Notes under the pieces: generated by a model
The model's database searches: none
The model's input: only the letters and a program-made list of their open reading frames with translations
What the model was told of the DNA's origin: nothing
Source of the DNA: a virus
UHGV virus genome: UHGV-0137562
Reading direction: 5' to 3' (one strand)
Length of the DNA stretch: 19,149 bases
Made by a program: the position numbers and the translations under genes
In this document: piece by piece, positions 2,959 to 19,149 of the stretch
Numbering within the stretch: position 1 is the first letter of the stretch
Layout: every line of letters starts with the position of its first letter

Positions 2959-3870
2959 ATGGACCAAACCACCGACATTCAGGCTTCTGAAGAATTAACC
3001 CTGCCCGGCAATCATGCAGCGGCATCTGCTGATGGCTTAGTTGTCGATAATGCCAACGACAACGCAGGTCAGGAAGAAGGCTTCGAGATTGTCCTGAAAG
3101 ACGATGAGAAACCAAAACAAGACCCGGCAACTAATGCTGAATTTGCCCGTCGCCGCATCGAACGCAAACGCCAGCGTGAGCTTGAGCAGCAGATGGAAGC
3201 GGTTAAGCGTGGAGAATTGCCGGAGCACCTGCGGGTGAACCCTGAGTTACCAAAACAACCAGACCCTAACGATTATCTTTCCGAAGATGCACTGGCTAAG
3301 TACGACTATGACCAGAGCCGCGCACTGGCTGCCTTCCAGCAGGCAAACAGTGAATGGCAGATCAAGGCTATGGACGCACGAAGCCAGGCTGTCGCCGAGC
3401 AGGGTCGCAAAACTCAGGAGTTCACCCAGCAATCAGCGCAATACGTCGAGGCAGCCCGTAAGCACTACGACGCAGCGGAAAAGCTCAATATCCCTGACTA
3501 TCAGGAGAAAGAGGATGCATTCATGCAACTGGTGCCGCCAGCAGTCGGTGCCGACATCATGCGCCTCTTCCCGGAGAAATCCGCTGCTCTCATGTATCAC
3601 CTTGGTGCTAATCCTGAAAAAACACGCCAGTTGCTGGCGATGGACGGGCAATCCGCGTTGATTGAACTCACTCGACTGTCAGAACGTTTAACTCTCAAGC
3701 CTCGAGCCAAACCTGTTTCAGAAGCCCCGCTACCTGATGAACCCATTCAGGGACACGCTGTTGCTGCAAATATATCTGCGATTGAAAAGCAGATGGAAGC
3801 GGCAGCAAACAAAGGGGATGTAGAGACATACCGCAAGCTCAAGGCGCAACTGAATAAAGGAATTCGATAA
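2959..3870 (+). CDS. Scaffolding protein (P22 gp8-like), 303 aa
   Basis: Same length as P22 gp8. Charged, helical, low-complexity sequence. C-terminus [15 protein letters not shown] resembles the helix-turn-helix coat-binding tail of P22 scaffold. RBS-like GAGAG upstream. Sits between portal and coat. Confidence 0.85.
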
Positions 3871-4392
3871 TTATTTCGATATCGTGATGTTGTTTTCCTC
3901 GTCAAACTTTCTGATTACTTCTTTCGCCTCTTCGAATGAAGAACATACTTTTTGCACTCTTGCATTAAGCAGTCGCTTATGAGCGATCCATCTTTTCCGC
4001 GTGTTGCAAAAGTAAACTCCAGATATTCCGCTGGAGTTATTTTTAGATAGTTTGATTCTATTCCTTTGGTTTGCTGATTTTTTCACAAGACGAAGATTTT
4101 CAATTCTGTTGTCGTGTCGAATCCCATTTATATGGTCAATTTCCATGCCTTCTGGAATATCTCCGTTAAACATTACCCATACGATGCGGTGTGCTAGCCA
4201 CTTAATGCCGTTAATTCTTATGCGGATATATCCATTGCTTTCTAAAAGACCAGCAACTTTCCCAGCGTGTTTTGCATTCCAAACGTTGTGATAGTTGCGA
4301 TTCTTTTTGTTGTTGAAAAATTCAGAGCTTCTGGCTTTCCAAACCAAAGAACCATCGCGGTATTCGAAGTATTCATTCAGTTCCATGCTCAT
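3871..4392 (-). CDS. HNH homing endonuclease with AP2-like DNA-binding domain, 173 aa
   Basis: Motif EIDHINGIRHDNRIENLRLVKKSANQRN is a classic HNH (His-Asn-His) core. It is followed by SGISGVYFCNTRKRWIAHKRLLNARVQKVCSSFEEAKE, resembling the AP2 domain common in phage HNH endonucleases. Gene is AT-rich, on the opposite strand, and its stop abuts the scaffold stop. Confidence 0.8.
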   Translation of the reverse strand: MSMELNEYFEYRDGSLVWKARSSEFFNNKKNRNYHNVWNAKHAGKVAGLLESNGYIRIRINGIKWLAHRIVWVMFNGDIPEGMEIDHINGIRHDNRIENLRLVKKSANQRNRIKLSKNNSSGISGVYFCNTRKRWIAHKRLLNARVQKVCSSFEEAKEVIRKFDEENNITISK

Positions 4393-4400
4393 AACCCTAA

Positions 4401-4445
4401 TGCGCTATATGTTGATATAACAATAGTATAGCACATAAAGAAAGT
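4401..4445 (-). promoter_or_regulatory. Possible sigma70-type promoter for the HNH gene (minus strand)
   Basis: AT-rich 67-bp spacer upstream of the HNH start. Its reverse complement contains TTGAAT and TGCTATACT (extended -10-like) elements. Spacing is imperfect, so low confidence. Confidence 0.3.
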
Positions 4446-4459
4446 AAGGTATTCAATAT

Positions 4460-5755
4460 ATGACTCTCAAAGAAGGGCAGTTAGTTACTTACGCTATCGA
4501 TGAAATCATCGAAACCGTCCAGAACCTGACGCCAATGGCGTCCAAAGTGACAAAATACACCCCTCCGGCAGAATCCATGCAGCGTTCAAGCAACACCGTG
4601 TGGATGCCTGTTGAGCAGGAAGCGCCAACCCAGACTGGCTGGGATTTAACTGGCAACGCAACCGGGATTCTGGAACTCTCCGTGAAATGCAACATGGGTG
4701 ATCCGGATAACGATTTCTTCGAGCTTCGTGCAGATGACCTGCGTGATGAGCGTTCTTACCGTCGCCGCATCCAGGCATCCGCCAAAAAACTGGCGAATAA
4801 CATTGAGTCAGCGATTGCCAAACAGGCAACTGAAATGGGCTCGCTTGTTGTTCACGATACCCGCGCAATTGGTCCATCTACTGGCCTGTCTGGCTGGGAT
4901 TTTGTGTCTGATGCAGAGCGCCTGATGTTCTCCCGTGAGCTAAACCGCGATATGGGCATCAGTTACTTCCTGAACCCTGACGATTACCGCAAAGCAGGCC
5001 GCAACCTGGTAGATGGTGACATCTTCGGGCGCGTTCCTGAAGAAGCGTATCGCAACGGTACTATTCAGCGTCAGATTGCTGGCTTTGATGAAATTCTTCG
5101 CTCGCCGAAACTTCCTGCAGTTACCAAGTCAACCGCTACTGGTGTAACTGTTTCTGGTGCGCAGAAGTTTAAGCCGCAGGCATACACCCTTGATACCGAT
5201 GGTAACAAAGAGAACGTCGACAACCGTGTTGCAACGGTGACCGTATCCTCCACCACCGGATTTAAGCGCGGCGACAAAATCAGCTTCACTGGTGTGAAAT
5301 TCCTGTCTCAGATGGCGAAGAACGTGCTGACTGATGATGCGACTTTCTCAATCACCCGTGTGATCGATGGTACTCACATCGAAATCACGCCGAAACCGAT
5401 TGCACTGGATGACGCGTCACTGACAAAAGAAGAGAAGGCTTACGCTAACGTAAACACCTCTCTTGCTGATTCCACTCCGGTAAACGTTCTGAACGTGGCA
5501 ACAACCACCGCTAACGTGTTCTGGGCTGATGACTCAATCCGCCTGCTGTCTCAGCCGATTCCGGTAACCCATGAACTGTTTGCTGGCATGAAAACGTCTT
5601 CCTTCAGCATTCCTGGTATTGGTGTTAACGGCATCTTCGCAACGCAGGGTGATATCAATACTCTGTCTGGTAAGTGCCGTATTGCTGTGTGGTATTCAGC
5701 ATGTGCTGTACGGCCAGAGGCAATTGGTGTTGGTCTGCCTAACCAGACCGCGTGA
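4460..5755 (+). CDS. Major capsid (coat) protein (P22 gp5-like, HK97 fold), 431 aa
   Basis: Length matches P22 coat (430 aa). N-terminal and internal segments ([46 protein letters not shown]) agree with my recollection of P22 gp5. Followed by a strong terminator. Confidence 0.92.
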
Positions 5756-6870: not shown

Positions 6871-8289
6871 ATGCCGATTCAGCAACTTCCGCTTATGAAA
6901 GGTGTCGGCAAAGACTTTCGAAACGCCGACTATATCGACTATCTGCCAGTGAATATGCTGGCTACACCAAAAGAAATCCTTAACAGCAGCGGATATCTTC
7001 GCTCATTCCCGGGCATTGCCAAACGTTCTGATGTGAACGGTATATCGCGCGGCGTCGAGTACAACATGGCGCAGAGTGCTGTATATCGCGTGTGTGGGGG
7101 CAAGCTGTATAAGGGCGAAAGCGAAGTCGGTGATGTTGCCGGAAGTGGTCGTGTATCAATGGCGCATGGTCGGACATCTCAGGCTGTAGGCGTTAATGGT
7201 CAACTGGTAGAGTATCGCTATGATGGCACGGTTAAAACCGTCTCAAACTGGCCTGCAGATAGCGGATTCACTCAGTATGAGTTAGGTTCGGTTCGTGACA
7301 TTACGCGCTTGCGTGGGCGTTATGCGTGGTCAAAAGACGGCACTGATTCATGGTTTATCACTGACCTTGAAGACGAATCGCATCCTGACCGTTACAGCGC
7401 ACAATATCGTGCCGAGTCTCAGCCTGACGGCATCATCGGCATCGGAACATGGCGAGACTTCATCGTCTGCTTTGGTTCATCGACGATTGAATATTTCTCC
7501 CTGACTGGCGCAACCACCGTTGGTGCCGCTTTGTATGTCGCACAGCCATCACTGATGGTGCAAAAAGGCATCGCCGGGACTTACTGCAAAACGCCGTTTG
7601 CTGATTCGTATGCGTTCATCAGCAATCCGGCAACAGGTGCGCCGTCTGTGTACATCATCGGTTCCGGTCAGGTATCACCAATCGCCAGCGCGAGCATTGA
7701 GAAAATACTACGCTCCTACACTGCTGATGAACTGGCTGATGGCGTGATGGAGTCTCTGCGATTTGATGCGCATGAGTTGCTGATTATCCACCTTCCGCGC
7801 CATGTCCTCGTGTACGACGCATCTTCAAGCGCCAATGGTCCGCAATGGTGTGTGTTGAAAACAGGCCTGTATGACGATGTGTACCGCGCTATCGACTTCA
7901 TTTACGAAGGCAATCAGATAACGTGCGGCGATAAGCTGGAGTCCGTGACCGGGAAATTGCAGTTCGACATCAGCAGCCAGTATGGTCTTCAACAGGAACA
8001 CCTGCTGTTTACTCCTCTGTTCAAAGCGGATAACGCCAGAGTTTTCGACCTTGAAGTTGAATCTTCAACTGGCGTTGCGCAGTACGCTGACCGCCTGTTC
8101 CTCTCTGCAACCACTGACGGAATCAATTACGGACGTGAGCAGATGATTGAGCAGAATGAACCGTTCGTTTACGACAAGCGCGTTTTATGGAAGCGAGTCG
8201 GGCGCATCAGGAAAAATGTTGGCTTCAAATTGCGCGTTATCACGAAGTCACCTGTAACTCTGTCTGGCTGCCAGATAAGGATTGAGTAA
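6871..8289 (+). CDS. Tail accessory protein (P22 gp10-like), 472 aa
   Basis: Same length as P22 gp10. N-terminus [46 protein letters not shown] agrees with recalled P22 gp10. ATG directly follows the gp4 stop. Confidence 0.88.
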
Positions 8290-9242
8290 TGGCTGATTCG
8301 AATCTCAATGAGCCAGTAATCATCCAGGCTACGCGGCTCGATACATCAGTCCTTCCACGCAATATCTTCTCGCAGTCATATCTGCTGTACGTTATCGCAC
8401 AGGGTGCTGATGTTGGTAACGTGGCTAACAAGGCCAACGAAGCAGGGAAGGGGGCTTATGATGCACAGGTGAAGAATGATGAGCAGGATGTCACCCTTGC
8501 AGACCATGAATCCAGAATTGCTGCTGCTGAAGCAACTCTCGTCAATCATGAACATAGAATCGCAGCAGCGGAAAGCACTCTTGCAGATCATGAAACAAGG
8601 ATTACGGCTGCCGAAACAGAGCTGGCTGATCACGAGACGCGAATTGCTGCCAATGAATCTGAGTTAGCAAACCATGATGCGCGAATAACTCAGAATACAA
8701 CCGATATCAACGCACTTGATACCAGGCTCACAGCGGCAGAGGGAAGTATTTCGACGCTACAAAGCACAGTTGGTGATCACTCAACAAGAATATCTGCGCT
8801 TGAGTATGCCACCACGCGCAAGAAATCAGAGGTTGTTTACTCAGGAGTATCGGTAACCATTCCAACAGCGCCGACCAACCTTGTTAGCCTGCTGAAAACG
8901 CTCACGCCGTCATCCGGGACGTTGGCACCATTCTTCGATACTGATAACAACAAGATGGTTGTTTTCAACGAGAACAAAACCCTGTTCTTCAAGCTGTCGA
9001 TTGTCGGGACGTGGCCCAGCGGAACCGCAAACAGGTCAATGCAGCTAACCTTTTCCGGATCTGTTCCTGACACACTGGTAAGCAGTCGCAACTCGGCGAC
9101 AACAACCGATAACATCCTGTTAGCTACGTTCTTCAGCGTGGATAAAGACGGCTTTCTTGCCACAAATGGCAGTACGTTAACCATCCAGTCAAATGGGGCG
9201 GCGTTTACTGCCACAACCATCAAGATAATCGCGGAGCAGTGA
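8289..9242 (+). CDS. Tail needle (P22 gp26-like) with extended C-terminal knob domain, 317 aa
   Basis: N-terminus [43 protein letters not shown] matches the conserved gp26 N-terminal tip. Followed by a repetitive ADHE.RI.AAE coiled-coil region and a roughly 170-aa beta-rich C-terminal extension, as in Sf6/HK620-type knobbed needles. TAATG overlap with the gp10 stop. Confidence 0.85.
8493..8702 (+). repeat. Five tandem 42-bp (14-codon) repeats in the tail-needle coiled coil
   Basis: Translated units: [14 protein letters not shown] / [14 protein letters not shown] / [14 protein letters not shown] / [14 protein letters not shown] / [14 protein letters not shown]. The DNA repeats are visibly similar (e.g. 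gctgatcacgagacgcgaattgctgcc). Confidence 0.8.
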
Positions 9243-19069: not shown

Positions 19070-19149
19070 GAATTTCTAACATACCATTTATTAATGGTTA
19101 ACTTTATGAGTTATCACTATAAAAATATAAATAGGAGCCACATGCGTTT

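Follow-up and report, generated by a model that had tools for sequence, protein, structure and literature searches.

The framework established for free-standing homing endonuclease genes (HEGs) includes co-conversion, and the HNH-type Mob enzymes encoded by such genes nick one DNA strand (PMC2988022). HEGs coupling an HNH nuclease to an AP2 domain adjoin essential or structural genes and are encountered at the boundaries of genetic exchange between related phages (PMC10055350). In the present work, we analyze a minus-strand gene inserted between the scaffold and coat genes of the virus genome UHGV-0137562, in a stretch of 19,149 nucleotides (nt) referred to hereafter as the window, and we argue that positions 3871-4498 very probably constitute a free-standing HNH-AP2 homing endonuclease cassette. 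The host of this cassette is a P22-like (Lederbergvirus) phage or prophage of Escherichia coli. The gene occupies an intergenic location, from scaffold stop to coat start, outside any intron or intein, and a search with the Rfam families, including group I introns, gave no match in 3500-4800. HEGs have been studied mainly in virulent phages (T-even phages, ICP1, Skunavirus) and the cassette presented here offers a compact case in a temperate and genetically tractable group.

The T-even genes mobA-mobE, SegF and SegG share several properties with this cassette: they lie in intergenic positions between conserved essential genes, are distributed sporadically among relatives and have co-converted flanks (PMC2988022). 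In both systems, the target is expected in the neighbouring conserved gene and the carrier would be protected from its own enzyme by sequence differences. The T4 Mob enzymes combine an HNH nuclease with a C-terminal DNA-binding region, as does the protein of the window (PMC2988022). There are also differences. The T-even phages are virulent whereas the cassette resides in a temperate P22-like podovirus, mostly as a prophage. Many T4 HEGs are devoid of promoter and read together with their neighbours, while the gene of the window is antisense to the operon. The T-even targets are located hundreds to thousands of bp away from the insertion, and the candidate target of the cassette at most ~40 nt from it. 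The DNA-binding domain is a zinc finger in T-even enzymes and AP2-like in the window and, finally, the cassette is predicted to repair the translational coupling that it breaks.

Two other systems are close to this locus. I-HmuI of the Bacillus phage SPO1 (PDB 1u3e) is a nicking HNH enzyme encoded by a group I intron, whereas the gene of the window has no intron; the C-terminal DNA-binding modules of I-HmuI are unlike the AP2-like domain described below and overall identity between the two proteins is only 24%. The HNH-AP2 HEGs of phages, cyanobacteria and protists, among which ICP1 IPA-HNH, display the same arrangement of an N-terminal HNH and a C-terminal AP2 domain (PMC10055350). The IPA-HNH domains of ICP1 escape the HNH_3 profile, in contrast to the canonical HNH_3 domain of the window protein. 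The latter differs further from this group by an AP2 domain remaining below the detection threshold and by a lineage tied to a single junction, that of scaffold and coat in P22-like phages. The elements involved are located as follows in the window.

2959-3870, plus strand: scaffolding protein gene, homologue of P22 gp8 (Pfam PF09306, E 1.7e-179)
3871-4392, minus strand: putative HNH-AP2 homing endonuclease open reading frame (ORF), 173 amino acids from the ATG at 4392 or 171 amino acids from the ATG at 4386
4393-4459, signals in both directions: right-hand arm of the insert (28% GC), missing wherever the site is empty
4460-5755, plus strand: coat (major capsid) protein gene, homologue of P22 gp5 (Pfam PF11651, E 1.2e-164)
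4463-4498, plus strand: recoded patch, 14 substitutions in coat nt 4-39, fully linked to the insert and forming the right end of the cassette

The insert is sporadic among close relatives. It is present in two of eight related phage records, Louie and Dewey, which match the whole scaffold-insert-coat stretch at ~99%; APC_JM3.2, CurroJimenez, IME10 and HZ41 are matched on both flanks at ~97.5% and the insert is absent. The junction (counted at ≥95% identity) is present in 218 of 5,426 complete E. coli genomes, and 20 of these contain the insert, as a single chromosomal copy found invariably at the scaffold-coat site and with 99.0-99.8% identity, while ~90% of the 218 display a clean TAATG empty site. 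A further 12 IMG/VR contigs have junctions identical to that of the window. In the insert-free relatives, the stop codon of the scaffold gene overlaps the start codon of the coat gene (TAATG), and this empty junction is the state of P22 and of every diverged lineage sampled. The structure of the insertion is TAA, 589 bp, ATG, with a one-base (A) ambiguity. No inverted or direct repeats are found at the ends of the insert, and an insertion sequence or transposon was rejected on this ground.

These comparisons bear on an initial annotation of the locus, which had described an AT-rich minus-strand ORF with a stop codon abutting that of the scaffold gene and had interpreted it as a free-standing, mobile gene of the HNH/AP2 type. 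The ORF is indeed present at 3871-4392 in an insert of 37.5% GC; its TAA stop, read as TTA at 3871-3873 on the plus strand, abuts the scaffold TAA at 3868-3870, which forms the left boundary of the cassette. The interpretation is supported by the presence/absence pattern and by the HNH_3 match reported below, and the gene, found in 20 of the 218 E. coli genomes, is not universal at this junction. The same annotation had attributed to P22 a short intergenic region between scaffold and coat: P22 does lack the insert, but it has no intergenic region, the last A of TAA being the A of ATG (record coordinates, H59 and H271). It had also proposed a precise insertion of 3871-4459. The insertion site is exact as proposed, but the first 39 nt of the coat gene (4460-4498) have been replaced as well. 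The base composition is 37.5% GC for the insert as a whole, 38.7% for the ORF and 28.4% for the arm at 4393-4459, as compared to 52.5% for the scaffold and 51.2% for the coat gene.

The mobile unit consists of the 589-bp insert together with the first 39 nt of the coat gene. Between occupied and empty alleles, 14 mismatches are concentrated in the 36 positions of coat nt 4-39, as opposed to 21-27 in the other 1,257 coat nt and 12-14 in the 912-nt scaffold gene; background divergence between the two states is ~2% outside the patch. The 141 junctions fall into three discrete haplotypes with zero intermediates: class A, which is empty (121 junctions), class C, which is occupied (15), and class B, which is empty and carries most of the patch (5). 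Full flanks were compared between 93 genomes of class A and 15 of class C. The 14 patch sites have a frequency of 1.0 in class C (0.87 at one site) and of at most 0.01 in class A, and no other site in the scaffold gene or in coat nt 40-410 displays a frequency difference of 0.3 or more between these two sets. Most occupied genomes have an empty genome as their nearest neighbour, in many cases at 0 differences over ~400 nt, and the 15 occupied genomes possess 14 distinct flank haplotypes interspersed with those of empty genomes. Among occupied genomes, diversity amounts to 0.40% in the insert versus 0.8-1.75% in the flanks. The linkage of the patch, the mixed flanks and the low diversity of the insert together indicate that 3871-4498 behaves as one cassette residing on many backgrounds. 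Capsid phylogenies including the first 39 coat nt are locally misleading since these belong to the mobile cassette.

Rather than a run of new mutations, the patch is a sequence imported from another lineage. This is indicated by its greater proximity to L198 and L208, from which it differs at 6-7 of 42 nt, than to class A, from which it differs at 14 of 42, combined with the identity of the window to class A from coat nt 43 onward. L198, a contig from a diverged P22-like lineage whose TAATG site is empty, has ~73% nt identity in the blocks aligned to the window, and the 14-residue N-terminal peptide of its coat protein is the same as that of the window. The exact donor, which would associate the HEG with the matching coat, was not found in phage records, IMG/VR or the GTDB species representatives: the searches yielded related lineages only (L198 and L208), and the GTDB species representatives contained nothing close to it.

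The junction is also occupied in more distant P22-like phages. Homologues of the endonuclease with 82, 74 and 59% identity, retrieved from a large protein database, are all encoded between a P22-type scaffold and coat gene on the opposite strand; in two of them, the stop codon abuts that of the scaffold and the third shows an 11-nt gap. The IMG/VR contig 3300038809_000005 (L235) encodes at its scaffold-coat junction a 178-amino acid HNH protein 43% identical to that of the window, ~640 nt upstream of the coat ATG. Five occupied lineages, with HEGs 43-82% identical to that of the window, share this junction and the same orientation; the coat proteins of the hosts of these related HEGs are 68-89% identical to that of the window. 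The comparison of L209 and L235, where the coat genes are 94% identical and the HEGs only 44%, indicates a hot spot where one HEG replaced another. In T4-related phages, SegH and Hef reportedly replace mobC and mobE. The likeness resides in these two diverged HNH genes sharing a junction in phages with nearly the same coat, and the difference in both occupants of L209 and L235 stemming from the same broad HNH family. In the L209/L235 lineage, occupied and empty genomes differ by 8-9 mismatches in the first 30 coat nt, the highest value of 20 bins, whereas the empty genomes have 0 mismatches among themselves in the first 90 coat nt; the pattern of a divergent flank is therefore replicated in a second lineage. 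The left junction of L235 reads TAATGTCT followed by the hairpin TGGCACAATAAGTGCCA, and it may preserve codons 1 and 2 of a former coat start.

The protein encoded by the insert has two recognizable domains, both on the minus strand.

4063-4197, minus strand: HNH_3 beta-beta-alpha-metal nuclease domain, residues 66-110, with catalytic residues D86, H87, N99 and N108
3895-4032, minus strand: AP2-like DNA-binding domain, residues ~121-166, with three strands and then a helix

The Pfam HNH_3 profile (PF13392) is matched by residues 66-110 with 78 bits for a cut-off of 24.8 (E 3.9e-22, profile positions 2-46 of 46) and PHROG 99, 'HNH endonuclease', at E 1.3e-50. The sole significant solved relative by sequence is I-HmuI. 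The HNH catalytic residues prove intact on alignment, as the proposal of an HNH enzyme implied: D86, H87, N99 and N108 are invariant across 72 homologues and are aligned to D74, H75, N87 and N96 of I-HmuI, the catalytic and metal-binding residues of that enzyme (motif D-H ... N ... N). An AlphaFold model generated from the 72-homologue alignment (predicted local distance difference test score, pLDDT, of 89.9) matches I-HmuI with a beta-beta-alpha fold, and its C-terminal domain forms a three-stranded antiparallel sheet packed on one helix, as expected for AP2. This domain is termed AP2-like because its sequence match remains sub-threshold, which is likewise the case in homologues P0002-P0004; Pfam AP2 is present together with HNH_3 in many homologues of the window protein.

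Translation of the endonuclease probably starts at the ATG at 4386, giving 171 amino acids, since AGGG lies 8 nt upstream of it and PGAP chose the same start in the prophage copy E62. In Louie, a C>A change at the equivalent of window position 4397 (L001 position 5584) converts AGG to ATG on the minus strand, and the annotated Louie coding sequence therefore begins 6 nt upstream of the window ORF. Between the window and L208, the proportion of nonsynonymous differences (pN) is 0.098 and that of synonymous differences (pS) 0.70; this disparity indicates an old gene kept functional by purifying selection, the ratio of the corresponding substitution rates (dN/dS) being ~0.05. Synonymous sites are saturated between the other HEG lineages. 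At least one copy is decaying: P0005, from one E. coli chromosome, is a 102-amino acid, N-terminally truncated endonuclease, 100% identical over the shared part. Within the HNH ORF, the segment 4008-4044, read in the direction of the late operon, contains an 8-bp GC-containing hairpin preceded by an A-tract and followed by a U-tract (free energy -13.4 kcal/mol, z -4.25). This terminator-like hairpin was dropped as a functional part, as it is absent in L209 and L214 and weaker in L208; it is probably incidental to the coding sequence.

GenBank and RefSeq already annotate the gene as 'HNH endonuclease', and NCBIfam has no model for the protein. We found no published discussion of the gene in a literature search that did not cover Casjens and Thuman-Commike 2011 on P22-like assembly clusters. 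The BASEL papers describing Louie, Dewey and CurroJimenez do not mention it, and the epsilon34 paper reports a different HNH fusion located in the early region.

Three short candidate elements were recognized by conservation in the recoded patch and in the right arm.

4472-4480, plus strand: candidate recognition core at coat codons 5-7 (E-G-Q), GAAGGGCAG in the window and GAAGGYCAA in alleles devoid of HEG
4425-4433, minus strand: candidate extended -10 element of the endonuclease gene, TGCTATACT in the window and TGCTATAAT in L208
4446-4449, plus strand: predicted substitute Shine-Dalgarno sequence AAGG for the coat gene, supplied by the cassette, in a region conserved in L208, L209 and L214

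The first of these elements points to a possible target. Coat codons 5-7 are GAA GGY CAA (CAG in a few) in the 24 different empty haplotypes, which represent several lineages, whereas all five occupied lineages read GAA GGR CAG while the other synonymous sites of the patch have diverged. A purine at coat nt 18 is found in five of five occupied lineages and in one of 24 empty haplotypes, the latter belonging to class B (Fisher p 5e-5, in a test that ignores the shared ancestry of the cassettes). We tentatively propose, at somewhat less than even confidence, that cassette-free genomes would be recognized by the enzyme at their conserved coat 5' end, while recoding would protect the carriers. The patch is in this respect a candidate determinant of self-immunity.

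In the class B allele, the TAATG site is empty but 10 of the 14 substitutions of the patch are present: its junction follows class A in coat nt 1-9 and the cassette type of class C in nt 10-43. It is carried by five of the 141 junctions and by eight E. coli genomes. The latter comprise ECONIH6, NMBU_W05E18 and TO6 (L005-L007, coat start at locus position 2992) and five further genomes, and IMG/VR contigs including L161 also belong to this class. Class B may represent a resistant empty allele, or the product of a repair event in which the endonuclease gene was not copied; the suggestion that its switch at coat nt 10-11 marks the cut site is speculative. A bolder combination of these elements would describe the junction as a homing site contested by two or more deeply diverged HNH lineages (44% identical) that target the same conserved coat 5' sequence. 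With prophages as hosts and an antisense promoter of its own, the endonuclease would be made by the lysogen and would attack cassette-free relatives on superinfection, acting as a gene drive and as an interference weapon, with class B a selected resistance allele and its switch the mark of cleavage. We regard this combination as rather doubtful.

The right arm would accommodate the expression of both genes. Blocks of this arm are conserved across four HEG lineages. In an alignment of the window, L208 and L209, the element TGCTATAMT is conserved and could be an extended -10 promoter of the endonuclease. A sigma-70 promoter of the form TTGAAT-17-TATACT, also considered on the minus strand of the arm, was rejected since its spacer measures 20 nt and a consensus scan was empty. 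On the coat side, the initial annotation had assumed that the insertion kept the ribosome-binding site of the gene intact at 4393-4459. This assumption does not hold: the arm belongs to the insert, is missing from all insert-free relatives and supplies AAGG instead. The coat Shine-Dalgarno sequence of empty genomes, AAGGA, sits within the 3' end of the scaffold gene, where translation of coat and scaffold is coupled through TAATG; in occupied genomes, this original AAGGA is now 590 bp away from the coat ATG. As the insertion splits the TAATG overlap, the cassette would carry a replacement Shine-Dalgarno sequence for the coat gene, the predicted AAGG taking over from translational coupling.

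We propose the following mechanism. An I-HmuI-like HNH nuclease fused to an AP2-like domain would be expressed against the direction of the late operon, probably under the control of an extended -10 promoter of its own. When cassette-bearing and cassette-free genomes meet in one cell, the enzyme would nick or cut the cassette-free allele within the first ~40 coat nt, which are conserved and encode M-x-L-x-E-G-Q. Repair by recombination with the cassette-bearing genome would then copy the endonuclease gene along with the adjacent coat 5' end. The 14 changes in coat nt 4-39, most of them synonymous, would probably shield the carrier from the enzyme that it encodes, and the key protective change among them could be GGY CAA to GGR CAG at codons 6-7.

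Several observations weigh against a homing cassette. Background linkage in prophages is very low (mean r2 0.16 at ≤50 nt), so general recombination alone could have placed one ancient insertion on many flanks and would be a sufficient explanation of their mosaic nature. The perfect linkage between patch and insert was rejected as proof of selection for immunity, since the patch contains no identity run longer than 5 nt, too short for crossover, and the linkage may be mechanical. The purine at nt 18 is subject to the shared ancestry already noted. With an occupancy of only ~9%, the element shows no obvious sign of a sweep. In L208, L209 and L214, the HEGs have diverged roughly in step with the coats, a covariation explained equally well by prolonged vertical inheritance with losses and by repeated invasion. 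As for the protein and its expression, the AP2 profile (PF00847) does not reach its threshold, with 15.7 bits for a required 33.3 and profile positions 1-19 of 54 only; the candidate endonuclease promoter has no canonical -35 element, and the consensus scan, which requires one, found nothing on the minus strand of the arm.

The best surviving alternative is a nuclease expressed by the prophage from a promoter of its own as a weapon, or moron, which would damage cassette-free P22-like phages superinfecting the lysogen, homing being a by-product or not occurring at all. The gene is AT-rich, opposite to the late operon and preceded by its own conserved -10-like element, as are many morons, it is under strong purifying selection, its hosts are temperate with prophages in 20 E. 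coli chromosomes, and the window contains other prophage-expressed exclusion genes such as a SieA-like gene. We nevertheless hold this alternative to be unlikely. The PADLOC defence-system models matched by the protein are 'homing endonuclease' models only, not defence components, and both the recoded, target-like patch and the recurrence at a single junction are signatures of homing for which a defence gene has no need. Interference by the nuclease is compatible with the data as well as with homing.

An old resident gene, inserted once or ancestral and no longer actively homing, inherited vertically, shuffled by lambdoid recombination and mostly lost, has slightly poorer prospects and is in our opinion improbable. 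With linkage disequilibrium almost nil within 50-100 nt, the mosaic flanks need no homing, and the covariation of HEG and coat divergence in three lineages, the low occupancy and the truncated copy P0005 all agree with such a history. The 14 differences that distinguish the class A coat 5' end, however, cannot be restored by a deletion of the insert, and the empty TAATG site is found in P22 and all diverged lineages sampled. The diversity of the insert is lower than that of the flanks, as expected of a cassette younger than the flank polymorphism. Maintenance of the ORF and of its active site at a dN/dS of ~0.05 would be unexplained for a useless, vertically inherited gene. Moreover, phages whose coats are 94% identical harbour at this junction two HEGs sharing only 44% identity. 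P22-like phages package their DNA by the headful (pac) mechanism, for which no HNH factor is required. Packaging factors of the HK97 gp74 type would be expected next to the terminase and in all relatives, in cos-packaging phages. An HNH protein of the HK97 gp74 type assisting the terminase, which the presence of a nuclease within the head-morphogenesis and packaging cluster would recall as in HK97-like phages (PMC10055350), is excluded for practical purposes because of the distribution and position of the gene, absent from P22 and ~90% of close relatives and placed on the opposite strand between scaffold and coat instead of beside the terminase, and its family, HNH_3 with an AP2-like DNA-binding domain, also argues against this role.

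A free-standing homing endonuclease cassette remains our preferred interpretation of 3871-4498. It represents a clear-cut natural case of a type of element that is already well known and leaves the general picture of HEGs unchanged. Its value lies in a natural allele series composed of the susceptible-looking empty class A, the empty class B with most of the patch and the occupied class C, and in the existence of phage isolates of class A (CurroJimenez) and class C (Louie and Dewey) sharing one laboratory host. It makes a testable prediction of the target, GAAGGYCAA at coat codons 5-7. It also illustrates how an element can sit in a tightly coupled late operon, with its own predicted ribosome-binding site for the coat gene in place of the TAATG coupling.

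The remainder of the window corresponds to a P22-like late region, with a partial large terminase gene, portal, scaffold, coat, homologues of gp4, gp10 and gp26, ejection proteins, an immI-like region and a tailspike. No second HNH gene was found within the window. In Louie (PQ850616) and Dewey (PQ850600), a tblastn search with the endonuclease gives a second, weaker match outside the region covered by the window, and these phages may carry another HNH-type gene elsewhere in their genomes. Between the coat and the gp4/Ad3 gene, a plus-strand ORF of ~195 amino acids at 5799-6392 matches phrog_3769 (E 2.3e-100); since unrelated ORFs of 45-87 amino acids hold this slot in close relatives, it constitutes a second variable slot of the late operon. 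The tail needle gene at 8289-9242 on the plus strand encodes 317 amino acids and, unlike a plain needle, possesses a C-terminal knob domain (phrog_1030). The immI-like region at 13738-17077 contains the SieA-like superinfection exclusion gene on the minus strand, two Arc/Mnt-like repressor genes and two Ant-like anti-repressor genes. GC content falls below that of the insert only at the 3' end of the window (~18.3-19.1 kb): the lowest value, ~34%, is reached at ~18300-19149, spanning the 3' part of the tailspike gene (17129-18838) and beyond, a segment that may be a recently exchanged receptor-binding module.

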